DNA of 64,000 nucleotides from a virus (IMGVR_UViG_3300049141_000098:32001-96000); one strand, 5' to 3'. Counted from the first letter of the stretch, positions 3,805 through 41,191 are shown. Program-made: numbers and translations. The notes: generated from the letters alone by a model not told the origin.

Positions 3805-6800
3805 TCAGCCAACCGCTTCGATGCACCGGACGCCGAAAGCTCGCACGATCTCCGGCTCCACCCGATCTTTGTCTACTCGCGCGTCAAGCCGGTAGACCGT
3901 TGTCTTGCAGGGCCCGTTCACCCGAAGAAGGATGTCGGCCTCCCCCGGATGGTCGTTCAAGATCTGCTTCAGCGCCGAGACCGACTCGGGCGTGACCTTG
4001 GTCGAGGGGAACGTGATGCGAACGAGCGGGCCTCCCTCGACCTCGACGGAGGAGATGTCAAGAACCTGCACCTCCTGCCCGAACAGGCTGATGGCTCCGT
4101 CTCGCTCGTTGATCTGGCCTTGCACCGACACGACGGAGTCCTCGATCAGGACGCTGGAGGCCAGGGTGTACGCGCTGGCGAAGAAGAGGACGTCAATCTC
4201 TCCGTCTCGGTCCGCCAGGCTCACGATCGCGTAGGGCTTGCCCTTCTTTGTGACCTTGTGCTGGACGTTGGTGATCAAACCAGCCAGCCGGACGACTCCT
4301 TCCGTTCGGTCCGAAGTGAGCAGGTCGATCACCGTGCTGTCCCGGCGCTTCGAGAGGATGTGCTCCGTTCCGTCCAGGGGGTGGGCGGACACGTACAGAC
4401 CCAGCATTTCCCGCTCCAACGAGAGAAGGATCTTACGCGGCCATTCCTCCGACGAGATCTCAACTGGCAGGCCGAAGGAGACTCCACCGTCGACTCCGGT
4501 CGCTAGCTCGGAGAACAGATCGTCCTGACCGTACGATGCCGCCTTCTTTCCCGAGATTGCCGCATCGACAGCCATCTCGTACGCCGTCGACAGCCCCTTC
4601 CTGCTGTGCCCCAAGCTGTCGAAAGCACCCCCCTTGATCAGGGATTCGAGGCCCCTCTTGTTCAGTCCAGGCAGGTCCACCTTGTCGATGTAGTCCGCGA
4701 ACGACGTGAAGACGCCCTTGTCTTCCCGGGCCTTGACCACGGCCTCGATCAACCCGTCTCCGACATTGCGCACCGAGCGGAGGCCGAACCGGACGGCGTC
4801 ACCGACGGCAGTGAAGTCTCCGACAGACTCGTTGACGTCAGGAGGGAGCACCTTGATGCCCAGTCTGCGGGCATCCGCCAAGTACGTTCCAGCCTTGTCC
4901 TTGTCGTCTTCGACCGAGGTGAGCAACGCGGCCATGTACTCGGCCGGGTAGTTCGCCTTCAGATACGCGGTCCAGTACGAAATGAGGCCATATCCGGCAG
5001 TGTGGGATTTGTTGAACGCATAGCCGGAGAAGGGGAGCATGACGTCCCAGATGGCCTGTACGGCTTCGGGTGAGTATCCCTTGCCCTCCATGCCGGTGCG
5101 GAACTTGTCCCACTCGGCGGCCAACACTTCGGGTTTCTTCTTGCCCATGGCGCGGCGTAGCATGTCGGCGCCGCCGAGGGTGTATCCGGCCAGCTCTCGG
5201 GCCACCGCCATGATCTGCTCTTGGTAGACGAGCAAGTGGTGAGTGGATCCCAGGATCGGGTCGAGAACCTGCTTCAGTTCGGGGTGGATCGGCTCGGGCT
5301 TCTGCTTTCCGTTCTGGCGCAGTGCGTAGTTGGTGTGGGCGTTGGCGGCCATGGGGCCGGGTCGGTAGAGGGCAAGTGCTGCTGCAATGTCTTCGAAGCG
5401 GGTGGGCTCCATCAGCTTGAGCAGTGCGCGCATCCCGCCGCCGTCGAGCTGGAAGACGCCGAGGGTGTCACCCTTGGCGAGGAGGCCGAAGGTCTTCTTG
5501 TCGTCGAGCGGGATGACCTTCTTGTCCGGGTCCCCGTCCATGGGATCGACCGTGACGAGCTGGACATTACGGTTCTTCTTGATGATCTTCAGGGCGTGGT
5601 CGATGATGCCCAGGTTGCGCAGGCCCAGGAAGTCCATCTTCAGCAGGCCGAGCGCTTCGCATGACGGATAGTCGAAGCCCGCGATCCGCGCCCCGTCCTT
5701 GGCCCGCATGTGCAGCGGAATGCGTTCGACTAGCGGCGTCTTGGAGATGATCACAGCGGCGGCATGCACGCCAGTGTTGCGCGTCAGACCTTCGACGCCC
5801 TTGGCCGTGTCGATGATCTTCTTCACGTCCGGCTCGTTCTGGTACATCTCGCGGACGTCACCGCACTCCCCATATCGGGGGTGCTCGGGGTCGAGGATCC
5901 CGTCCAGTGGAACCGGGTTTCCATTGACGTCCGGCGGGAGCGCCTTGGTGATCCGCTCCCCCTGCTGATAGGGGAACTCCAGAATCCGCGCCGCGTCCTT
6001 GATCGCGTTCTTGGCCTTGATCTTGCCAAACGTGATCACCATCGAGGTGTATTCGGCGCCATACTTCTCAGCGACGTAGCGCACCATCTTCTCGCGCTGC
6101 CGGTCGTCGAAGTCCAGGTCAACATCCGGAGGATTGATGCGCTCCGGGTTGAGGAACCGCTCGAACAGCAGCCCCTGCTCCAGGGGGCACAGCTCGGTGA
6201 TTCGGGTGGCGTAGGCGACGATCGAGCCGGTGGCCGAGCCACGTCCGGGCCCTACCGGGATCTCGTTGTCACGGGCGTACCGGCAGATGTCCGCGACGAT
6301 GAGGAAGTACGAAGAGAAACCCATGGGGCCGATGACGGACATCTCGGTCTCGAAGCGTTGCATGACCTCCGCCGGAAGCGGCACGCCATAGCGCTTTTCC
6401 AGACCCTTCAAGCACTCCTGGCGAAGCCACTCCTCCTGAGTTACCCCGTCGGGAACGTCCGGGTAGTCCGGCATCTCGTCGACCATCGCGAAGACTTCGT
6501 CGTAGGACTCGACGCGCTCAGTGATCAGGAGAGTGTTGTCGCAGGCCTCGGGCAGCTCGGAGAAGAGGCTCCGCATCTCCTGTGCGGTCTTCAGGTAGTA
6601 GCCGGTGCCGGAGAACTTGAAGCGGTTCTCGTCCGACTTGTTCTTCCCGGTGCCAATGCACAGGAGGTTGTCGTGCGCGTCGGCCTGGCTGGCGTGAATG
6701 TAGTGGGCGTCGTTCGTCGCCAGCAGAGGGATGCCCAACTCCTTGGCCAGGCGCAGCAGGTCACCCCGAACCTGAGACTCGATGGACAAGCCGTGATCCA

Positions 6801-7398
6801 TCAGCTCCAGGAAGTAGTTCTCCTTGCCGAGGATCTCCTGGTAGGCAGCGGCCGTCTTGCGCGCTTCGTCGTACTGGCCCAGGCGCAGACGCGTCTGGAT
6901 GGCTCCGGAGGGGCAGCCGGTCGTGCCGATGATTCCCTCGGAGTGCTCGGCGATGAGTTCCATGTCCATCCGGGGCTTGCCAGCCGGGTACTGGCCTGTG
7001 TACGAGGCCTCCGTGGACAGGCGGAAGAGGTTGCGGAGCCCTCGGGCATTGCGGGCCCACATCGTCATGTGGGTGTAGCGGCCACCACCGGAGACGTCCT
7101 TGGTGGCCTCCATGTCGTCGGAGACCTGGCGCGCTCCTCCGGGGTTCCAGAACTCGCGCTTGCGGTTCAGCCGGGAGGAGGGGGCGACGTAGGCCTCGAT
7201 GCCGATGATCGGCTTGACGTCGGGGAACTTCTGGCTGGTGGAGTAGAAGTCGTAGGCGCCGAACATATTGCCGTGGTCGCTCATCGCGACGGCAGGCATC
7301 CCCTGACGGGCCACCTCTTCGAACATGGGCTTGAGCTTCTGGGCTCCGTCGAGCAGGGAGAATTCGGTGTGATTGTGCAGATGGGTAAAGCTGTCCAT
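3805..7398 (-). CDS. dnaE: DNA polymerase III alpha subunit
   Basis: PHP motifs HLHNHTEFS, SDHG, GIEAY, TNDAH; VGPGRGSATGS; PPDVDLDFD; KMDFLGLR; GYAFNKSH; C-terminal OB fold. Start taken at MDSFTH. Confidence 0.97.
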   Translation of the reverse strand: MDSFTHLHNHTEFSLLDGAQKLKPMFEEVARQGMPAVAMSDHGNMFGAYDFYSTSQKFPDVKPIIGIEAYVAPSSRLNRKREFWNPGGARQVSDDMEATKDVSGGGRYTHMTMWARNARGLRNLFRLSTEASYTGQYPAGKPRMDMELIAEHSEGIIGTTGCPSGAIQTRLRLGQYDEARKTAAAYQEILGKENYFLELMDHGLSIESQVRGDLLRLAKELGIPLLATNDAHYIHASQADAHDNLLCIGTGKNKSDENRFKFSGTGYYLKTAQEMRSLFSELPEACDNTLLITERVESYDEVFAMVDEMPDYPDVPDGVTQEEWLRQECLKGLEKRYGVPLPAEVMQRFETEMSVIGPMGFSSYFLIVADICRYARDNEIPVGPGRGSATGSIVAYATRITELCPLEQGLLFERFLNPERINPPDVDLDFDDRQREKMVRYVAEKYGAEYTSMVITFGKIKAKNAIKDAARILEFPYQQGERITKALPPDVNGNPVPLDGILDPEHPRYGECGDVREMYQNEPDVKKIIDTAKGVEGLTRNTGVHAAAVIISKTPLVERIPLHMRAKDGARIAGFDYPSCEALGLLKMDFLGLRNLGIIDHALKIIKKNRNVQLVTVDPMDGDPDKKVIPLDDKKTFGLLAKGDTLGVFQLDGGGMRALLKLMEPTRFEDIAAALALYRPGPMAANAHTNYALRQNGKQKPEPIHPELKQVLDPILGSTHHLLVYQEQIMAVARELAGYTLGGADMLRRAMGKKKPEVLAAEWDKFRTGMEGKGYSPEAVQAIWDVMLPFSGYAFNKSHTAGYGLISYWTAYLKANYPAEYMAALLTSVEDDKDKAGTYLADARRLGIKVLPPDVNESVGDFTAVGDAVRFGLRSVRNVGDGLIEAVVKAREDKGVFTSFADYIDKVDLPGLNKRGLESLIKGGAFDSLGHSRKGLSTAYEMAVDAAISGKKAASYGQDDLFSELATGVDGGVSFGLPVEISSEEWPRKILLSLEREMLGLYVSAHPLDGTEHILSKRRDSTVIDLLTSDRTEGVVRLAGLITNVQHKVTKKGKPYAIVSLADRDGEIDVLFFASAYTLASSVLIEDSVVSVQGQINERDGAISLFGQEVQVLDISSVEVEGGPLVRITFPSTKVTPESVSALKQILNDHPGEADILLRVNGPCKTTVYRLDARVDKDRVEPEIVRAFGVRCIEAVG

Positions 7399-7450
7399 CG
7401 AACGCCTCCGAGTCGTCACGAAGGGGTCAAGATACCGACCCACCTCACGT

Positions 7451-13676: not shown

Positions 13677-14204
13677 TTACTGCTTGGGCGTCCCTGGCTC
13701 GATATAAGCGTCCAGCATCAACTCGCGACTTCCCTTTTCCTGGGCCGTGAGGTGAAAAGCCCGGGGGTTCTCGCTGCACCGGTATGAACGCTGCACGCCA
13801 GACTTGCCGTATCGATGAGCCAGGTCGCGGGCGTACCGTCGAGCCCGAGCCTCGGACCGATGGACCATCTGACGACAGGAGCAAATCGTCTTCTTGATCC
13901 TGAAGTGCCCCCGCTTCAGGCCTGGGGGGCCATCCGCCAGAAATCCTTCGAACGCGTCCTGGTCGCAGGTCAGCCACTCTTCTTCGTTCCACAGCAGGAC
14001 GTAGCGGCGAACGCGAACGCGGCCGTTGACGATGCGAGCCATCACCATTGACTCGTGCGTCGACTTGGACCGGGTGCCCTTCGTTGCGTGGACGAAGGCG
14101 AGCTTCGACCTCCTCCAATACCGCTCGGTGGTGTGCCAGCGGCGCTGGCCGAACTCCGTCAGGTAGTCGGCCAGCGCCGCTGCGAGGCGGTCCTGGTCAC
14201 CCAT
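13677..14204 (-). CDS. Hypothetical protein
   Basis: 175-aa ORF overlapping the helicase stop; C-terminal C...YRC...FHLT motif. Confidence 0.55.
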   Translation of the reverse strand: MGDQDRLAAALADYLTEFGQRRWHTTERYWRRSKLAFVHATKGTRSKSTHESMVMARIVNGRVRVRRYVLLWNEEEWLTCDQDAFEGFLADGPPGLKRGHFRIKKTICSCRQMVHRSEARARRYARDLAHRYGKSGVQRSYRCSENPRAFHLTAQEKGSRELMLDAYIEPGTPKQ

Positions 14205-15807
14205 TGCCGACGGCGACCGGCTCCGCCTCCTGAGCCGGAGCCGGGTACTTGTCGATCCACTTCAGACCGGACCGGTCGAGATGCTCCTGGGCCCGAGTGA
14301 CGGCAACGTAGTGGACCATCGCTTCATGCCGATCGATCTCGCCGGGCTCCAGCGTCTTGGTCTGCTCGTTCTCGACGGGGGCGGGCTCACGGAAATCGTC
14401 GGCGATCTGAACTCGCCTCCACTCCAGGCCCTTGATCGAATGGCAGGTGCTGATGGCCAGGTCATGCTTCGGGTAGCGAGGACTGTAGTCCACGATCTTC
14501 TCGCAGGCATCGAGCAGCCTCCCCACTCCATAGGACTGGACGAGGCGGACGAGCGGCTTGTACTGCCCTCCTGCGGGCTCGTCGGTGAACTCGACGAACT
14601 CGGCCCAACTGGTGAAGTGACTCAACTCCACGTCGCTCGGGCGCTCGCCCTTCATGAGGGAGTTTGCCGCATAGGCGAGGCTCTGGATCTGCTCCTTGCC
14701 ACGCACCAGGGCCACTCGCTTGCCGACGGTGAGGTAGCTCATCGCCCACTCCATAGCCCCCGCGTTGGACCGGGTCAGCACCACGTCCGGGTCAGGCATC
14801 TGTCCTTCGGTGACGCTGTCCTTGATCGTAGGAAGACCCTTGATCGTGATGCCGGTCTTCGTGTGGGCAAGATGCTTGGTCGCCTCCTCTGCCACGGCCG
14901 GTCCGAAGCGGAACGACTGCGTGAGGTACAGGCGCGGGCCATCGAACTTCAGGATCTGATCCGAGGCTCCACGCCACTGGTACAGCGTCTGCGCGGGGTC
15001 GCCGATCAGTACGGCCTGGGCCTTCTGGTTGTCGATGAAGCGCATCGTCGTGTCGTTCGAGTCCTGCGCCTCGTCGCAGATCACCACGTCGTAACCGTAG
15101 TTGACGCCGCCGTCGGAGATGAGCTTGAAGGCCATGTTCATCGAGAAGCGCAGGTTGGAGTCCGGCTGGATGGAGCGGCTCCACAGCTTCCGGGCAAGGT
15201 TGGCAATGTACCTGCGGGCGGCCTCAAGAACGGCAGGCTCAACGCCGTGGACCACGAGAGGCACGTCGTAGGACGTGATCTTCGGGCGGTTGGAGTTGCA
15301 GAATCGCTCGATCGCTTCCTGGGCTAGCTTGGCCTGGGCGTACCCATCGAGGAAGAGGTTGTCGCCGAAATCTACGTCGTCGAGCCTCATGCGCCGGGCG
15401 ACCTCGCGGGCAGGGATGGCCTTCGCCTTGGGGTCCATGCGGAGTACGTACTTCTCCGCGATCTCCTTGCCTCGCCCGGGGTGGCTTGCCTCGTGACGCT
15501 TGTGGTCGGCATACGCCCGCCAGGCGAACGAACTGGTGGTGCGTACGTCCACCCACGTCATGCCAGCCTGCGCGAACTTGCGCTCCGCGTCCAGCTTGGC
15601 CGACTTGTTGTAGACGAGGTAGAGAACCTTCAGCCCCTTCCGTACGCCCCCCATGCCGAGGGCTGTGGCGCTCTTGCCGGAACCGGCGGGAGCTACGAGG
15701 GCGAAGGACTCTCCCTCGGCGGCGAGGTCTATGGCGGCCTGCTGCTCCTCCGTGAACTTCACGTCTTCTCCTACTCCATCTTCGCGTATCAGGCCCCGGA
15801 GAGTCAT
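14197..15807 (-). CDS. SF1 UvrD/Rep-like helicase
   Basis: APAGSGKS, DEAQD, IGDPAQTLYQWRG, LTQSFRFG, STCHSIKGLEW, YVAVTRA. Confidence 0.92.
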   Translation of the reverse strand: MTLRGLIREDGVGEDVKFTEEQQAAIDLAAEGESFALVAPAGSGKSATALGMGGVRKGLKVLYLVYNKSAKLDAERKFAQAGMTWVDVRTTSSFAWRAYADHKRHEASHPGRGKEIAEKYVLRMDPKAKAIPAREVARRMRLDDVDFGDNLFLDGYAQAKLAQEAIERFCNSNRPKITSYDVPLVVHGVEPAVLEAARRYIANLARKLWSRSIQPDSNLRFSMNMAFKLISDGGVNYGYDVVICDEAQDSNDTTMRFIDNQKAQAVLIGDPAQTLYQWRGASDQILKFDGPRLYLTQSFRFGPAVAEEATKHLAHTKTGITIKGLPTIKDSVTEGQMPDPDVVLTRSNAGAMEWAMSYLTVGKRVALVRGKEQIQSLAYAANSLMKGERPSDVELSHFTSWAEFVEFTDEPAGGQYKPLVRLVQSYGVGRLLDACEKIVDYSPRYPKHDLAISTCHSIKGLEWRRVQIADDFREPAPVENEQTKTLEPGEIDRHEAMVHYVAVTRAQEHLDRSGLKWIDKYPAPAQEAEPVAVGNG

Positions 15808-34530: not shown

Positions 34531-34638
34531 GTTCAATCCCCTTTCCAGTAACCAGTATTGCATGAAAACGGTCAGATGTCAGCCGGAAAGATCGTAGATT
34601 CGTGCGAAGCTATCTTCCGTGAACGGAAGGAGAAAGCC

Positions 34639-35724
34639 TTGTCTACGCCGATGAGCGCAGCAACTTTCATATCGATTCTCAAAAAGGAGGGCGTGAGGGT
34701 CGTCGAAGAGGGTTCCTGGGAGACCCACAATCGGAACTCTAAGGGACCCTGGGGCCCCGTGTACGGCGTCGTGATTCATCACACCGTAACCAAGGGGACA
34801 CGCAACACCGTCGACATCATTCAGGATGGCCACGGCTCGCTGCCAGGGCCCCTGTCTCAGGGGATGATCGCAAAGGATGGCCGGGTCTATCTGGTGGGCT
34901 ACGGTCGCGCCAACCATGCGGGCCTCGGCGACCCGGACGTTCTCTCCGCCGTCATAGCAGAACGAGATCTGCCCGTTGATAACGAAGCAAGCGTCGATGG
35001 GAATCGGCACTTCTTCGGATTTGAGTGCGAAAACCTCGGCGACGGCAAAGACCCCTGGCCAGCGGCCCAGCTCGAAGCGATCGAGCGAGTCTCCGCTGCG
35101 ATCTGCCGCCACTACGGATGGAACGAGCGCAGCGTTATCGGCCACCTGGAGTGGCAGCCCGGCAAGGTCGACCCAAAGGGCTTCACCATGGATGCGATGC
35201 GTAATCGCGTCCGGGCTCGTCTCGCCTCATCGCCCGACAAGCCGACACCTCCGCCGTCCAACGGCACCACCTACACCGTGAAGCCCGGCGACACGCTATC
35301 CGGGATTGCGAAGTCCCTCGGCGTCACCACCGAGGCCCTGTTCGCAGCGAACAAGGACCGCCTCAAGGACCCGGACGAAATCTCTATCGGCCAGGAGCTG
35401 GTCATCCCCACCGGCAAGCCACTGCCGAAGCCGAAGAAGCCGAAGGTCGACCTGTCCAAGCTCGTCGAAGCCGCACTGAAGAACCCCTCATCCCCGGGAA
35501 CGCCGGTCACGTACAGCGGCGTGAAGACGGTCGAGGCGGCACTGGTGGACGAGGGGCTGCTGGCGAAGAAGTACTACGACGGCCACTTCGGCGACGCGAC
35601 CATCCAGGCGTACCAGAGGTGGCAGAAGCGCTGCGGCTACTCGGGGGGCGCCGCAGACGGAATCCCCGGCAAGGAGTCCCTCACGAAGCTGGGCAAGAAG
35701 CACGGCTTCGACGTTGTCGCCTGA
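34639..35724 (+). CDS. Endolysin: amidase_2 + LysM + peptidoglycan-binding domain
   Basis: VVIHHTV, GRANHAG, GFECEN, VIGHLEWQPGKVDP; LysM YTVKPGDTLSGIA; C-terminal DGHFG/DGIPG. TTG start after GGAAGGAG. Confidence 0.93.
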   Translation: MSTPMSAATFISILKKEGVRVVEEGSWETHNRNSKGPWGPVYGVVIHHTVTKGTRNTVDIIQDGHGSLPGPLSQGMIAKDGRVYLVGYGRANHAGLGDPDVLSAVIAERDLPVDNEASVDGNRHFFGFECENLGDGKDPWPAAQLEAIERVSAAICRHYGWNERSVIGHLEWQPGKVDPKGFTMDAMRNRVRARLASSPDKPTPPPSNGTTYTVKPGDTLSGIAKSLGVTTEALFAANKDRLKDPDEISIGQELVIPTGKPLPKPKKPKVDLSKLVEAALKNPSSPGTPVTYSGVKTVEAALVDEGLLAKKYYDGHFGDATIQAYQRWQKRCGYSGGAADGIPGKESLTKLGKKHGFDVVA

Positions 35725-35739
35725 TCAGGAGGTATAGCA

Positions 35740-36117
35740 ATGCGAGTGTTCGGTCGCGAGCCGGTCTACATCCTCGCCGCCATCGCCGTCACCCTGAAGC
35801 TGGGGGCGGCGTACGGCCTCGATGTCTCGGACACCGAACAGGGCGCCATCATGGCGTTCCTGAGCCTGGTCGTTGCAGTCATCAACGCAATCGTGCTGCG
35901 TACTGGTGCGGTCGGTGCTGCCATCGTCAACCTGGCACAGGGTGGACTGGCCCTTTTCCTCGCCTTCGGCCTGGAAATGCCCGCCGAAACCCAGGCCCTC
36001 TGGATGCTGGCTGTCGAGGCCCTGGTCGCGTTCTTCGTCCACAAGGAAGTCACCGCCCCCGTCTCGGTCCTGCCGATCGAGGAGAGGTCGCCAGCCGCGC
36101 TCACCAAGGCGGCCTGA
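35740..36117 (+). CDS. Holin
   Basis: Small multi-TM protein (MRVFGREPV) directly after the endolysin. Confidence 0.8.
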   Translation: MRVFGREPVYILAAIAVTLKLGAAYGLDVSDTEQGAIMAFLSLVVAVINAIVLRTGAVGAAIVNLAQGGLALFLAFGLEMPAETQALWMLAVEALVAFFVHKEVTAPVSVLPIEERSPAALTKAA

Positions 36118-36214: not shown

Positions 36215-36568
36215 GTGAGCGTAGACGAGCCGTCCCTGGGGGAACTTGGGCGACTCATTCGGGCGTTGCGCGACGACGTCCGCGACGACATGGCCCAAAT
36301 CAATCAGCGCCTGGATAAGTTGGTGTCGGCGGACGTTTACGCCGTGGAGAAGGCGGCCATGGCCAAGGAGATCACCGACCTGACCAAGACCGTGCAGCAA
36401 CTGGCGGCCAAGCAGGAGCAGGACGTGAGGGCGATCGCTGACCAGCGCATACAGGACGTCAACCGGGTCACTCAGACGCGGAGATGGATCGTAGCCAGCG
36501 TCATCATCCCCATTCTCGGCTTCGTCGTCCCCATCATTCTGTTTCTTGCGTCAGGAGGCGGATCGTGA
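36215..36568 (+). CDS. Coiled-coil protein with C-terminal TM (lysis cassette)
   Basis: Typical actinophage post-holin membrane gene architecture. Confidence 0.65.
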   Translation: MSVDEPSLGELGRLIRALRDDVRDDMAQINQRLDKLVSADVYAVEKAAMAKEITDLTKTVQQLAAKQEQDVRAIADQRIQDVNRVTQTRRWIVASVIIPILGFVVPIILFLASGGGS

Positions 36569-37287
36569 AGCCCGTCGTGAAGTCGGGTGCCAGGGTTGAG
36601 GCGCGAAAGCGGCGCAGGCGCGGCAACGTGATTGCCGGTGTAGCGATCCTCTTCGGAGCCGCAACGCTGGCAGCCGTCGTCACCGGGTTCTTGATCCTGT
36701 CCCAGAATCTGTCGGACGCCCATCGAGATAACGCCCTGCTCGCCGAGCAGGTCAAGTCGATGGGCGGAACACCCGTCGCCGGACCAAAGGGGGACACGGG
36801 CGCCGCTGGCCTGGTCGGCCCCTCAGGCCCGCCGGGGCCCTCCGGAGCCCCGGGTTCGCCAGGGAAGGCGGCGCCCACGATCACGCCGAGCCCCGGCCCC
36901 ACCGGACCGCCAGGACCGTCGGGGGTAGCGGGTGAACCCGGCGCTGACTCCACGGTTCCTGGCCCAACGGGGCCGGTTGGGCCAGCAGGCCAGGATGCGA
37001 CTGGAGCGCCGGGAAAGGATGGCGAAAACGGTCAGGATGGCCAGAATGGCTCACCCCCGTCGGAATGGACATATCAGGACCCCCAGGGGAACACGTACCG
37101 CTGCACTCCGGTCGACGACTTCGACCCGGACAACCCCCGGTACCGCTGCGTCCTGACCAGCACACCATCGCCGACCTCATCCCCTCCGGCCAGCGACCCG
37201 AGCCCCACCTACGAGACCTCGCCGGAGGCCTCGCCATCCCCAAGCGAGGCCTTCCTGGTGTCCCTCCTGGACGGTCTCGGCGGATGA
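36565..37287 (+). CDS. Membrane-anchored collagen-like protein
   Basis: N-terminal TM, G-x-y repeats, YRC...YRC C-terminal module. Confidence 0.75.
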   Translation: MKPVVKSGARVEARKRRRRGNVIAGVAILFGAATLAAVVTGFLILSQNLSDAHRDNALLAEQVKSMGGTPVAGPKGDTGAAGLVGPSGPPGPSGAPGSPGKAAPTITPSPGPTGPPGPSGVAGEPGADSTVPGPTGPVGPAGQDATGAPGKDGENGQDGQNGSPPSEWTYQDPQGNTYRCTPVDDFDPDNPRYRCVLTSTPSPTSSPPASDPSPTYETSPEASPSPSEAFLVSLLDGLGG

Positions 37288-37437
37288 CGAGCCTCGCGAA
37301 GCCCGTCCTTTCGTGTGTTGATGAGCAAGTCTCGCGCCGGTTCAGCTTGTTCTTCAAGCAGCCGAGGTGATTGGCTGGTCCCTCCCCGGGTCCTGTGATA
37401 CAGCAGGGCCCGGGTTGAGACTCGGAAAGGGACCTCC

Positions 37438-38334
37438 ATGACCGCACCCAAGCTCGTTGGGCCCAGGCAGGGCGAACGGGCGACAGAGACGCGCATCTAC
37501 GCCGTCGGCGCCCTCAAGGGCGGAACCGGCAAGACCAGGTTGGCCATGCTCATCGCCCTGATTCTGCGCGTCGTCTTCGGCTACCGCGTCGTCGTCTTCG
37601 ACGCGGACTCAGGCTCGCAGACCTCCTCGAATTGGCCCGTGAAGGCCAAGCTGCGCGAGTATGCCTGGGACATCGAGGTGATCCGCCACCCCTTCGACAC
37701 GCTCGACAAGGAGATCGACAAGATCCGCGAGCGAGGAGACGTCGACTTCATCATCGTGGACGTCGGTGGCGGTAACGTCGCAGCCTTCCAGGCGGCCGTC
37801 AAGCGAGCACACAAACTGCTCGTGCCTCTGTGCCCCGACGAGGGCGACCTGGAGCAGGCCCCCAAGACGCGTGACGCGGCTCTGATGGCGGCCAGCCGGA
37901 ACCCGTTCGGCTGTCAGATGTACTACGTCCTTTCACGCTGCGGCAACGACCGCGACAAGATCGACAGCCGGTCAGTCCTGCTGGACGTGCCCGAAACCGA
38001 CGAGGATGGGCCGTATCCGCTGCTCGACACCGACATCCCGTCCCTGGTGGCGTACAAGCGGGCCTTCGGGCGTATCCCGCAGATGAAGGGGTCCTCTACA
38101 GATCCGGACTGCCCTCGGTGGAAAGACCTCGTGGGCTTTGTCCCGATGATGCTGGAGACGGAGATTCTCACCGTCGAACAGGTTCTCTCCAGCGGCCTGA
38201 TGACCAAGCGGGAAGTGGCCGCACATGCACCCATGCTGCTCGCTGGGGAGGTCATCACGGATGAACAGGCGCTGGAGCTTGGCCTGATGACAGAAGGCGA
38301 GTTGGCCGCCCTCCAGGAAGAAGTGGTCTCCTGA
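37438..38334 (+). CDS. parA: ParA partition ATPase (type Ib-like)
   Basis: Deviant Walker A KGGTGKT, DADSGSQ, Walker B FIIVD; no N-terminal HTH. Confidence 0.9.
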   Translation: MTAPKLVGPRQGERATETRIYAVGALKGGTGKTRLAMLIALILRVVFGYRVVVFDADSGSQTSSNWPVKAKLREYAWDIEVIRHPFDTLDKEIDKIRERGDVDFIIVDVGGGNVAAFQAAVKRAHKLLVPLCPDEGDLEQAPKTRDAALMAASRNPFGCQMYYVLSRCGNDRDKIDSRSVLLDVPETDEDGPYPLLDTDIPSLVAYKRAFGRIPQMKGSSTDPDCPRWKDLVGFVPMMLETEILTVEQVLSSGLMTKREVAAHAPMLLAGEVITDEQALELGLMTEGELAALQEEVVS

Positions 38335-39245
38335 TGAAGAAGGGACAGGTCATCGGGGGCGCCACGGCAAACGGCACTAAGCGGCGCGGCATGCTGCCCC
38401 CCTCCGGTGAGGGGCCGATCGAAGTGACGCGCGAAGTGGTGGACAGCTCCACGGACGTGGAGCCGTCGGCGACCACGCTACCGGCACAGGCCTCGGCGCA
38501 GACTCCCTCGCCGACACTGGCCGACCTCGTACCAGCCACTGTACGAGACATACTGACGGCAGATCTGCCGGAGTCGGGCGAGCCCGCCGAGGTCATCGTC
38601 GCCTGCGAGAAGCGGCTCTACGCGGCGAACAGCTTGCTCGAAGCGATGCAGAAGAAGACCCTCGACACCTACTTCGAGTACGCGGGTCCGGCGGTCCGGC
38701 TAGCTTGGGCGACCGAGTCGTGGCGAGCCTGCAAGGATCCCGATACCGGCAAGGACTGCCGCTCCTGGTCGGCGTGGCTGCGCATCGTGAAGGTGTCCCG
38801 GCAGCATGCATACCGGATGACCAAAGAAGAGCCGATCCGCGAGGCGCTGTCCGGCCTTGACATCGGCAAGCTGGGAGTCCGGCAGATCGACGTCCTCTCG
38901 CCGGTCCTGACCAACTTCGGCCAGAAGGCGGTTCGTGAAGTCTGGGTGACCGCCATGGGCTGGGGAGACACCAGCGCCCCCTCTCTCCTCAAGGTCCGCA
39001 GACAGCAGGGATACGAACCGAACAAGCAGATCTCGGAGGGCGAGGAGGACGCGTCAGGACGGGGTTCGGATCTTCCTGTGCTGCGCTTCCAGGCAAAGCC
39101 GGGCACCTTCGATGCCCAGCGGGTGCGCGAGGTGGCCCGAGCCCAGCCGGACATCGCCCTACTGGTAGCCAAGGAGATCTTCGCCGAACTGGGAGTAGAG
39201 GTAGGCGACGAACCTGTATCGCGCGATACAACTCCAGCGAACTGA
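38334..39245 (+). CDS. Atypical ParB/centromere-binding partner of ParA
   Basis: Translationally coupled to parA; HTH-like WSAWL..VKVSRQHAYRM; no recognisable ParB CTPase GxxRxxA motif. Confidence 0.6.
   Translation: MKKGQVIGGATANGTKRRGMLPPSGEGPIEVTREVVDSSTDVEPSATTLPAQASAQTPSPTLADLVPATVRDILTADLPESGEPAEVIVACEKRLYAANSLLEAMQKKTLDTYFEYAGPAVRLAWATESWRACKDPDTGKDCRSWSAWLRIVKVSRQHAYRMTKEEPIREALSGLDIGKLGVRQIDVLSPVLTNFGQKAVREVWVTAMGWGDTSAPSLLKVRRQQGYEPNKQISEGEEDASGRGSDLPVLRFQAKPGTFDAQRVREVARAQPDIALLVAKEIFAELGVEVGDEPVSRDTTPAN
39215..39230. repeat. parS-like palindrome TGTATCGCGCGATACA, copy 1
   Basis: Perfect 16-bp palindrome inside the 3' end of the ParB-like gene. Confidence 0.75.
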
Positions 39246-39248
39246 ACC

Positions 39249-39264
39249 TGTATCGCGCGATACA
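39249..39264. repeat. parS-like palindrome, copy 2
   Basis: Perfect 16-bp palindrome; part of a 24-bp direct repeat with copy 1 (period 34 bp). Confidence 0.75.
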
Positions 39265-39269
39265 ACTTT

Positions 39270-39297
39270 GAGGGGCGGGTCAGATGACCCGCCCCTC
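39270..39297. terminator. Hairpin between convergent genes
   Basis: GAGGGGCGGGTCA-ga-TGACCCGCCCCTC. Confidence 0.7.
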
Positions 39298-39305
39298 TTC
39301 GTGTC

Positions 39306-39836
39306 TCAGTTCTGGCCCGACCTCATGCGAATGAGGCTGTCAACGACTTCCGCCCACGGGCCCTCCATGGATCGAGGTCCGTAGTACCCCCAGTGGCTGA
39401 TGGTCTGGCGAGTGCAGAGCACCTCGGGCCCGTTCCAGTACATCAAGGGGCGCCCGTCAGAAGCGACCGCCTCGATGCCGTGAGAGCGAAGCCAGGCGGC
39501 GACACTCTCCTGATCCAGACGAATCGACTGGGCCACCACGGAGAACCCTGCACTCAGCAGAGCGCGAACCCCTTCGATGGCACCAGGGACCGGAGGTCCA
39601 TACATGCGCCCTTCCTGCCACCCCTTCGTCCTCTGGTGCAGCCCGCCGCGCGTCTTGCTTCCATCCACCTTGACCAGGACAGTCTTCCGCGTCTGCTCCT
39701 CCGCAGGAAGTTGGCCCCACAGGCCCACGGCGGCGCTGTGCAGCTCTGCGGCGAGCTGGGCTACCTCCGCTTCATTCAGGCTGTCTTGTCGCTTCCGCGC
39801 GCCCTGTAGGGACGCGATCAGGCGGTCCAGGTTCAC
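39306..39836 (-). CDS. Hypothetical protein, possible degenerate HAD-like domain
   Basis: PVPGAIEGVRALLSAGFSVV...VAAWL..HGI resembles HAD nucleotidases, but the catalytic DxD is absent. Confidence 0.45.
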   Translation of the reverse strand: MNLDRLIASLQGARKRQDSLNEAEVAQLAAELHSAAVGLWGQLPAEEQTRKTVLVKVDGSKTRGGLHQRTKGWQEGRMYGPPVPGAIEGVRALLSAGFSVVAQSIRLDQESVAAWLRSHGIEAVASDGRPLMYWNGPEVLCTRQTISHWGYYGPRSMEGPWAEVVDSLIRMRSGQN

Positions 39837-39886
39837 ACTCCACCCCTTCTTCGTTGTCGGTGACCCACCGGTCTTGCGGCCGAAGT

Positions 39887-39902
39887 TGTATCGCGCGATA
39901 CG
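39887..39902. repeat. parS-like palindrome, copy 3 (1 mismatch)
   Basis: TGTATCGCGCGATACG in an intergenic gap. Confidence 0.7.
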
Positions 39903-39912
39903 ACTTGAGGGC

Positions 39913-41091
39913 CTACCAGTCCCAGTCACCCTCCCTCGCCTGCTGCGCTTCCCGCTCGCGGATCTCTTTGGCCTTCGTCGAGCCGAGGTTGGACAGCTTC
40001 ACATCGCGGTGACTGGACGGATCCCCCTGTTGCGGATCCACGGGAACGACCTGGGTCACCGGTTCCTCGCCTTCGCCGAGCTGGTCGAGTTTGGTCCAAT
40101 ACGGATCGACCCAGACGATTTCCCCACGCTTTCGCCCCGGCCCCACCCAGACCGTCTTCGTGTGGCCGACACGATGCTGCGGGCCGTACTCAACTCCAGA
40201 GGGGATCGAGACACCGTCACGGGTCCGGCCAACCGTCCGACTCTTCGCCGCGTGCAACTTGGGGCCGATATACCAGCCCACCCTGACGTAGTGCGGCTCC
40301 CGAGGCGGGGCCTGGCGTCGCTTGCCTCTATTCGGCGCAGGCGGCGGCTTCTCGATGTCGGCGTTCTTGCAGCACAGATAAGAAAGCAGGGTCAGTGCAC
40401 CGGGAAGGATCTGCTTGATGAGCTTCCGGCTGTCCTTCGTGCCGTCTGCCACGCCATGCCACTGATAGCTTCCCGCGATCATGTCATCCAACGTGAACGC
40501 TTCGTCCATCGATGGGAGCGGGAAGACCGGGGTGAGGATGTCGTGGTACGTCGGGGCATTCGGTTCCGTGTCAATCCAGGGGACGATGCATAGCCCTTCG
40601 GACCGTTCATCCGTCGTCGCACAGAACGCCCGGCCGACTCGGCCGGTGAGGAAGTATGCCCTGATCAACCCTTGAATCCCGGAAGAGAAGTTCACCGGCC
40701 ACGGGTGCGGCAGCGGAATCATGGGATTGATATGACGGATGCGGGAGAAGATACTGCCGGGCAGTTTTCCCTTCAGGTCCGAGCGGTAGAGGCTGTTCGC
40801 CATCTCCGGGTGCACGTCGTAGGCCACACGGCCTTCACGGCGCCACAAGTCAACGACGGCATGGCTGGCCGCACGGTCGAGCATCGTGGATACAGCCTCG
40901 AATCCAACGGCGTGCTCCAGGTTCATGTCCCAGACCGGATCGATCCCCCTTCTCATCCGGATGGCATTCTCCATGCCGCCAGGAGCCTTGTTCAGGTCCG
41001 CCCCGATCTGGTTGGTCAGATCCAGAATCCGCTCGACCGCCTGGTTCGCTTCACTGGCTCGACGGATCCGCGTAGATGGCTTCTTCCCCAT
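39913..41091 (-). CDS. Hypothetical protein
   Basis: About 390-aa ORF, start MGKKPST after RBS GGGGAGG. Confidence 0.7.
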   Translation of the reverse strand: MGKKPSTRIRRASEANQAVERILDLTNQIGADLNKAPGGMENAIRMRRGIDPVWDMNLEHAVGFEAVSTMLDRAASHAVVDLWRREGRVAYDVHPEMANSLYRSDLKGKLPGSIFSRIRHINPMIPLPHPWPVNFSSGIQGLIRAYFLTGRVGRAFCATTDERSEGLCIVPWIDTEPNAPTYHDILTPVFPLPSMDEAFTLDDMIAGSYQWHGVADGTKDSRKLIKQILPGALTLLSYLCCKNADIEKPPPAPNRGKRRQAPPREPHYVRVGWYIGPKLHAAKSRTVGRTRDGVSIPSGVEYGPQHRVGHTKTVWVGPGRKRGEIVWVDPYWTKLDQLGEGEEPVTQVVPVDPQQGDPSSHRDVKLSNLGSTKAKEIREREAQQAREGDWDW

Positions 41092-41121
41092 GTCGCCTCC
41101 CCCTTTCCTGGCCTCATCCTC

Positions 41122-41151
41122 TCGAAGTTGTATCGCGCGATACAACTTCGA
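41122..41151. repeat. parS-like palindrome, copy 4, extended to a perfect 30-bp palindrome
   Basis: TCGAAGTTGTATCGCGCGATACAACTTCGA, followed by hairpin 41151-41174. Confidence 0.8.
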
Positions 41152-41191
41152 AGGGCGGCCCGAAGGCCGCCCTTGCGCCATCGTCTTTCGA

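Follow-up and report, generated by a model that had tools for sequence, protein, structure and literature searches.

Whether a ParA ATPase gene, the partner gene that follows it and a group of short palindromes in the genome of a very large virus amount to a DNA segregation system, and of which kind, is the question raised by a stretch of 64,000 nucleotides from IMGVR_UViG_3300049141_000098 (hereafter the window, to which coordinates refer unless another record is named). The source record is a 259,646-bp IMG/VR virus genome, estimated to be 100% complete and bearing direct terminal repeats, and the window, with a GC content of ~63%, comprises its bases 32001-96000. The initial annotation of this DNA had proposed that the palindromes are variant parS sites forming an orthogonal centromere, read by a non-canonical helix-turn-helix (HTH) protein. 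We conclude that the cassette is very likely a segregation system consisting of ParA, a ParT-like partner devoid of a CTPase domain and four palindromes acting as the centromere, and that it represents a divergent member of the ParATS systems. The CTP-independent ParATS kind has been known since 2025; what is new here is the divergent branch, its carriage by a probable jumbo phage-plasmid, and the occurrence of parS in several copies.

The cassette begins with parA (37438-38334, + strand), which encodes a ParA/Soj-type ATPase of 298 aa matching Pfam CbiA, AAA_31 and MipZ, PHROG 164 (ParA-like partition protein, E 7.6e-20) and NCBIfam ParA_partition (E 5e-17). The protein carries a deviant Walker A motif, KGGTGKT, at residues 27-33, and lacks the N-terminal HTH extension of type Ia ParAs; the Walker motifs are invariant among 20 ParA homologues. 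Its C-terminal tail, encoded at 38170-38334, contains two tandem copies of the motif (E)ILT-x-EQ-VL-x-GLMT-x-E-(L/V)AA, visible in the DNA as a 29-nt direct repeat (38194-38222 and 38281-38309). This motif is present twice in phage-type loci and once in plasmid-type loci. The stop codon of parA and the start codon of the partner gene overlap by 1 nt (TGATG), and parA stands directly upstream of the partner gene in every related locus as well as in the Streptomyces coelicolor plasmid SCP2.

The partner gene (38334-39245, + strand) encodes a parT-like, putative centromere-binding protein of 303 aa. As had been annotated, it contains no GxxRxxA motif. It also has no ParB_N match, and no ParB_N domain was found in its 30 relatives or in the whole genome. 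Neither the protein nor two family profiles had a match in Pfam, PHROG, NCBIfam or PDB sequences, and none of the solved ParB proteins was matched at the sequence level. We modeled the protein with AlphaFold2 (AF2) using 24 homologues, obtaining a mean predicted local distance difference test score (pLDDT) of 77, with values above 90 in the core. The model predicts a disordered basic N-terminus (residues 1-56, pLDDT <50), short helices followed by one long helix of 44 residues (84-127, pLDDT 89-96), a compact helical M domain (129-226) with a predicted HTH at 145-171, a disordered linker (233-245, pLDDT <50) and a small C-terminal domain (248-286, pLDDT 73-85) with beta-alpha-alpha topology at 253-286. 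In comparison with the centromere-binding proteins of type Ib systems (ParG, omega), which are small and bind DNA through a ribbon-helix-helix dimer, the partner has an HTH-like M domain within 303 aa, and its beta-alpha-alpha element is limited to the last 40 residues. Among AFDB clusters, the partner matched its own family, plus weak rows of uncharacterised, DUF3102 and DUF222 proteins. Atlas matches comprised DUF3102 and cyanobacterial clusters, a tentative lead.

To our knowledge, SCP2 ParT is the only CTP-independent ParB-like system that has been studied. ParT (SCP2.04c, CAD11997.1) resembles ParB but has no CTPase fold (Sukhoverkov et al., PNAS 2025, PMC12260392). Its flexible N-peptide leads into helix alpha-1 and the long helix alpha-2; next comes an HTH M domain, which can be superimposed on ParB, and a linker joins this to a C-terminal domain for dimerisation. 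ParT binds TGTCTCCAATTGGAGACA (Table S5), an 18-bp inverted repeat within the parT gene itself, and needs no nucleoside triphosphate to diffuse and accumulate on DNA; its first residues (SRR) bind the ParA-ATP-DNA complex and activate the ParA ATPase (PMC12260392). Structure prediction and profile comparison, suggested by the initial annotation as checks on the partner, both point to this protein. The AF2 model gives the published ParT layout, and hhalign of a 30-sequence family profile against SCP2 ParT (SCP2 sequence AL645771.1) returned a probability of 98.0% and an E value of 1.5e-13 over 120 columns, query residues 90-230 being aligned to ParT 76-198. The aligned region takes in the M domain and the last part of the long helix. 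Like ParT, the window protein has no CTPase domain and is predicted to carry a basic, flexible N-peptide ahead of a long helix, then an HTH-type M domain, and a disordered linker leading to a small C-domain; the two systems also have in common a Streptomyces host, very probable in the present case, and an operon of overlapping genes in which parA precedes the partner. Because the partner lacks a CTPase domain and is a remote ParT homologue with the same domain layout, we assign the system to the CTP-independent ParATS as a divergent member. The extent of divergence is considerable, identity to ParT being only ~22% over the 120 aligned columns.

The published survey reports many cyanobacterial structural homologues of ParT, and its list also includes Streptosporangium roseum ACZ92024.1 (PMC12260392), to which P0074, a distant member of the present family, is visibly close. 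The motifs SRQHAYRM, GPAVR and MLPP, hallmarks of the branch to which the window protein belongs (class I, below), are absent from the 112 homologues listed in PMC12260392, so this branch is uncatalogued there. At 90% identity the family comprises 47 protein clusters, and at 50% identity 29 clusters among 1.84 billion representatives. The branch extends over Streptomyces and Kitasatospora, where it is carried by ~250-kb phage-like elements and by circular and linear plasmids.

We next consider the palindromes. The 16-mer TGTATCGCGCGATACA occurs exactly at 39215-39230, 39249-39264 and 41129-41144, and with a single mismatch (last base A to G) at 39887-39902. Thus four copies are present, as first annotated, three of them being exact and the one at 39887 imperfect. 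In 100 dinucleotide-preserving shuffles, the mean and the maximum number of copies were both 0. Neither further copies of TGTATCGCGCGATACA with up to 2 mismatches, nor any other 16-18-bp TGT...ACA palindrome, nor canonical parS with up to 3 mismatches was found in the 259,646-bp genome. Comparison of all copies defined a conserved unit of 22 bp, A[C/G][C/T]-16-mer-[A/G][C/G]T, in which the left flank is ACC or AGT and the right flank GGT or ACT. The site parS-1 (39212-39233, exact core) lies within the final 31 nt of the parT-like open reading frame (ORF) and encodes the final residues EPVSRDT of the 303-aa partner; it is this first copy that accounts for the annotated presence of a site inside the partner gene. 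A similar placement, 21-30 nt ahead of the stop, recurs in two related loci, L005 and L014. The site parS-2 (39246-39267, exact core) lies 4 nt past the parT-like stop and 34 bp from parS-1, and the two form part of the 24-bp direct repeat GAACCTGTATCGCGCGATACAACT (39210-39233 and 39244-39267) that had been noted originally. With its core one base short of the consensus, parS-3 (39884-39905) lies just 3' of the stop of the minus-strand gene 39913-41091, between that stop and the likely start of the next minus-strand gene, and therefore in or upstream of the 5' end of ORF 39306-39929. The last site, parS-4, has an exact core at the centre of a perfect 30-bp palindrome (41122-41151), again in agreement with the original description; an AcrVA2-like gene starts 38 nt downstream of it (ATG at 41091), and it directly follows a GC hairpin (41151-41174) that ends the upstream minus-strand gene.

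We fetched homologue loci at decreasing identity to the partner. Ten independent loci, which we term class I, encode partners 52-81% identical to that of the window, and all of them contain the identical 16-mer. It is positioned between 30 nt before and 65 nt after the partner stop, with extra copies at most 3.7 kb downstream; a copy 4-65 nt past the stop is present in all 10 of 10 loci. The copies are perfect in 24 of 26 cases, the other 2 having an identical A-to-G change at the terminal position, whereas the flanks vary. Class I includes a second phage of 251 kb, plasmid-like Streptomyces contigs and the complete circular conjugative plasmid pZL1 (127,862 bp), for which our literature search found no description of a partition system. 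Counted over whole replicons, the 16-mer is present four times in this genome, twice in the related 251-kb phage and twice in pZL1, every copy lying beside the parA-partner pair. A literature search for a 14-mer and a 12-mer of the site returned no relevant paper.

Homologues with only 31-43% identity to the partner contain no class-I site. Instead, a different perfect palindrome begins 2-15 nt past the stop: AGTTGTCCCCCGGGGGACAACT in L016, AAGTGTCCCTT-n-AAGGGACACTT in L017 and, in two copies, in the linear Streptomyces sp. NBC_01766 plasmid that contains L021, and ACCGTTCCGCGCGGAACGGT, in two copies, in the Kitasatospora locus L018. The protein changes in parallel. The helix after the turn reads SRQHA[Y/F]RM invariantly in class I, and SHAHAYRM, SRSHAYRM and SKTHLYRL in the three other classes, so that the equivalents of R156 and Q157 in the predicted recognition helix vary in step with the site (SRQH, SHAH, SRSH, SKTH). 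Because the site is fixed down to ~52% protein identity and changes together with two residues of the predicted reading helix, we consider protein and palindrome to be a cognate pair. The exclusive linkage of the 16-mer to the gene pair in ten loci and on three replicons, its covariation with the helix and the homology of the partner to SCP2 ParT together support the orthogonal centromere proposed at the outset.

The half-sites of all classes, of SCP2 parS and of canonical parS fit (T/C)GT-N-Y-C. SCP2 parS resembles the sites described here in being an inverted repeat of the frame TGT-N-Y-C...G-R-N-ACA, which is common to the four classes and to canonical parS. It differs in being an 18-bp single site located inside the M-domain coding region of parT (L026 3566-3583), whereas the present systems have a 16-bp core in 2-4 copies, located at the 3' end of the gene or beyond it, as far as 2-4 kb downstream. 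Canonical ParB-parS (TGTTTCACGTGAAACA) likewise has a 16-bp palindrome with a TGT...ACA frame. The initial annotation had stressed this shared length and frame, and 12 of 16 positions are in fact identical to TGTATCGCGCGATACA; positions 4, 7, 10 and 13 differ. Canonical ParB (Spo0J) is also comparable to the partner in its HTH reader, in an N-terminal peptide expected to address ParA and in the short Soj-like ParA, but the partner lacks both the ParB_N/CTPase domain and the GxxRxxA box.

By analogy with SCP2, we infer how such a system could function. In this ParT-like design, a short N-domain, made up of the long helix and the flexible basic peptide ahead of it, would stand in for the CTPase domain of a ParB-type HTH protein. 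Dimers would recognise the 16-bp palindromes (22 bp with flanks) through the HTH around SRQHAYRM. Binding of both half-sites would bring the two long helices into a steric clash that, as in SCP2 ParT, might be resolved by closure of an N-gate, and the closed clamp could then leave parS and diffuse to flanking DNA without nucleotide, so that the protein would accumulate over the ~2-kb region with its four loading sites. The basic N-terminal peptide would stimulate the ATPase of nucleoid-bound ParA, and the resulting ParA gradient would separate sister copies. Two motifs of the disordered N-terminus, which is hypervariable elsewhere, are conserved: M-[K/R]-K-G and MLPP..G.P.EVT (here MKKG and MLPP..G.PIEVTRE). 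Both are candidate ParA-contacting peptides. A complex prediction for the ParA dimer with partner residues 1-62 weakly supports such a contact: it scored 0.35 against 0.00 for the best control, with at least 31% of contacts agreeing between runs and a partner pLDDT of at least 37. Of 80 solved complexes, 58 attained the pass mark of this procedure, as did 2 of 110 mismatched pairs; both of these mismatched pairs, but only 7 of the solved complexes, did so with scores of 0.60 or below.

Several observations weigh against a straightforward transfer of the ParATS model. Pairwise BLASTP of the partner to ParT is marginal (E 0.003 over 43 aa) and confined to the R-x-HAYRM helix region, the C-domain of the partner cannot be aligned to that of ParT, and the window ParA belongs to a different branch from SCP2 ParA, with 33% identity over 63 aa. 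Foldseek searches of the PDB, with the full model and with the M domain alone, gave best E values of 0.87-1.2 and did not clearly find ParB. A wide VIA-align search matched AAA+ lid-like or DnaD-like helical bundles with Z scores no higher than 7.9, which is the range of common arrangements. Since parS is multi-copy and lies outside the gene or at its very end, loading and sliding may differ from those in SCP2. Moreover, parS-3 and parS-4 lie just upstream of minus-strand genes, as operators would, and the case for episomal upkeep of the phage comes from its par genes together with a ~253-kb contig that stands alone in the assembly of a Streptomyces isolate.

The differences from SCP2 in parS copy number, in location outside the coding region, in the C-domain and in the distant ParA keep one rival alive, namely a static centromere in which fixed partner dimers bridge or pair the sites into a small complex, as in type Ib or other non-sliding systems, with neither clamp closure nor diffusion. 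We consider it improbable. The clustering of 2-4 sites per replicon would suit such a complex, given that one parS suffices for a loader-slider, and the C-terminal domain, unrelated in sequence to that of ParT (the alignment being limited to residues 90-230), could provide a second DNA-binding or oligomerisation module through its beta-alpha-alpha element at 253-286. However, the long helix, which is the N-gate in ParT, is conserved and confidently predicted, and the ParT-homologous region includes its end; two sites, as in pZL1 and the 251-kb phage, are also few for a non-spreading complex. A second rival holds that the palindromes are mainly operators through which the partner represses the AcrVA2-like gene and other neighbouring minus-strand genes in the prophage, segregation being secondary or absent. 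Partition proteins such as KorB and N15 SopB do regulate genes, and parS-3, parS-4 and the distal copies in L005, L006, L008 and L014 are located in narrow intergenic gaps, 20-40 nt upstream of minus-strand ribosome-binding sites. This reading is nevertheless very hard to reconcile with the fact that the sole invariant site position is directly past the partner's own stop, where the site is unable to control a promoter of that operon, and that in plasmid-type loci (L010-L013, pZL1) both copies lie at the 3' end of the operon, next to unrelated downstream genes. ParA, furthermore, always adjoins the partner. Because the constant site position coincides with the operon 3' end and no copy is found upstream of parA, a centromere explains the palindromes better than an auto-operator does. 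An operator-only role is therefore unlikely, while parS-3 and parS-4, judged by their positions, may have a secondary regulatory role.

The third alternative, raised from the start for the 30-bp palindrome at 41122-41151, is that it is a site of telomere resolution, dimer resolution or other recombination, or else that the palindromes are origin iterons. Beyond the perfection of the palindrome, the presence of one tyrosine recombinase in the genome might be adduced in its favour, but that gene is ~167 kb away, and four copies of a recombination site in one molecule would be deleterious. The genome contains no protelomerase (ResT/TelK) domain, the same 16-mer is found on the circular plasmid pZL1, and the arms beyond the 22-bp site differ between loci. 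As to an origin, the conserved neighbours are limited to parA and the partner and include no replication initiator. On the absence of a protelomerase, the four copies, the circularity of pZL1 and the locus-specific arms, we rejected the telomere, recombination and origin readings, which appear scarcely credible. The tyrosine recombinase domain is the sole one of the 260-kb genome (239710-240198 of the genome record, outside the window; in a 390-aa open frame, E 2e-16), and the enzyme might serve as an integrase or resolve dimers in the plasmid state.

Returning to the ParATS reading, with its two recognition-helix residues covarying with the site and its parS matching canonical parS at 12 of 16 positions, one may speculate that the subfamily is a natural intermediate, recording the loss of the CTPase domain by a ParB that kept the parS-triggered clamp, and that the accumulating clamp also silences the adjoining minus-strand genes, including the AcrVA2-like gene, in the prophage state. 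We regard this as a rather unlikely extension. If true, the silencing clamp would couple segregation to lysogeny control and anti-defence. Independently of this idea, at least 4 natural parS specificity classes tracked by a two-residue change of the recognition helix constitute a set for testing how ParT-type proteins read DNA. The same set bears on the generality of nucleotide-free sliding and on how orthogonal centromeres avoid the host ParB.

The nature of the replicon is indicated by its relatives. Proteins related to the partner were found in Streptomyces isolates and in soil metagenomes, several of them encoded on contigs of 199-253 kb. Among these, a 252,977-bp stand-alone contig of Streptomyces sp. 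NPDC058947 has the identical gene order lysis-parA-partner-SNF2. On account of these relatives, the host is very probably Streptomyces, and the ~260-kb phage probably persists as a low-copy plasmid prophage, that is, a phage-plasmid. SCP2, by comparison, is a 31-kb plasmid. Both nucleotide and protein searches of a phage collection were without matches. Upkeep of a linear plasmid-prophage by a ParA-type system is familiar from N15, whose SopABC system has palindromic centromere sites dispersed in intergenic or promoter-proximal places. N15 differs from the window system in that SopB is a ParB-family protein with a CTPase domain and SopA has the N-terminal HTH of type Ia ParAs. The present element resembles N15 in the intergenic or promoter-proximal placement of palindromic sites and, as we read it, in being a prophage kept as a plasmid; the N15 sites, however, are spread over the whole genome, whereas all four window sites lie within 2 kb of the operon. 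These observations suggest that very large actinophages can be maintained in plasmid fashion by a ParT-type system.

The parS sites are associated with further secondary structure. A GC-rich hairpin with a 12-bp stem and a 4-nt loop (39270-39297) separates the convergent parT-like gene and ORF 39306-39929; the RNA fold of 39205-39305 has a free energy of -60.1 kcal/mol (z -9.9), and the hairpin is probably a bidirectional terminator. A scan for promoter and terminator consensus sequences yielded nothing useful in this high-GC DNA. In plasmid-type loci, the second parS copy tops a GC-rich stem of 17-21 bp followed by a U-run, an arrangement indicating that parS there also serves as the terminator hairpin of the operon. 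The perfect palindrome continues 3-13 bp past the 16-mer, with locus-dependent sequence, in 14 of the 26 parS copies. Longer perfect palindromes of 28-42 bp centred on parS are found not only at 41122-41151 of the window but also in L005 (6867-6894, 7041-7070 and 7091-7120), L010 (6930-6971), L011 (5949-5988), L012 (5812-5845), L013 (5883-5922) and L014 (8051-8084). The outer arms of these extended palindromes differ between loci, yet their complementarity is kept.

Upstream of parA, no full or conserved parS-like site was found, which makes autoregulation via the palindrome unlikely. The phage-type loci share another motif in this region (37345-37437 of the window, L005 4950-5101 and L006 4870-5011), resembling GGTG(A/G)TTGG(C/G)(T/Y)G(T/G)TC and occurring twice in L005 and in L006. 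A GC hairpin and the identical ribosome-binding stretch CTCGGAAAGG are also common to them upstream of parA. The shared motif region, unlike parS in sequence, may act as promoter or operator for the par operon.

The minus-strand gene 39913-41091, bracketed by parS-3 and parS-4, encodes a protein of 392 aa that is 55% identical to an L006 protein carrying Pfam PF26125 (AcrVA2-like). The window protein itself was negative in the Pfam scan at E 0.01 and matches PHROG 6160. The neighbouring ORF 39306-39929 is missing in relatives, and we therefore regard this part of the locus as a variable cargo spot beside the centromere. Directly 5' of parA, matches to Pfam and PHROG identify an amidase-LysM endolysin (34558-35724), a holin (35740-36117) and a collagen-like protein (36484-37287), and on the 3' side of the par region Pfam identifies an SNF2 helicase, an HD hydrolase and a GntR-like gene. 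Elsewhere in the window, all on the minus strand, are genes for a DnaE-type Pol III alpha subunit (3805-7443), a UvrD-like helicase (14197-15807) and a 1349-aa tail-fibre-like protein with beta-helix, hyaluronidase and glycine-rich features (56977-61026). Finally, in two plasmid-type Streptomyces contigs, a perfect palindrome of 66-68 bp was observed just past a DUF2637 gene downstream of the par locus (L010 8614-8681 and L013 7566-7631).

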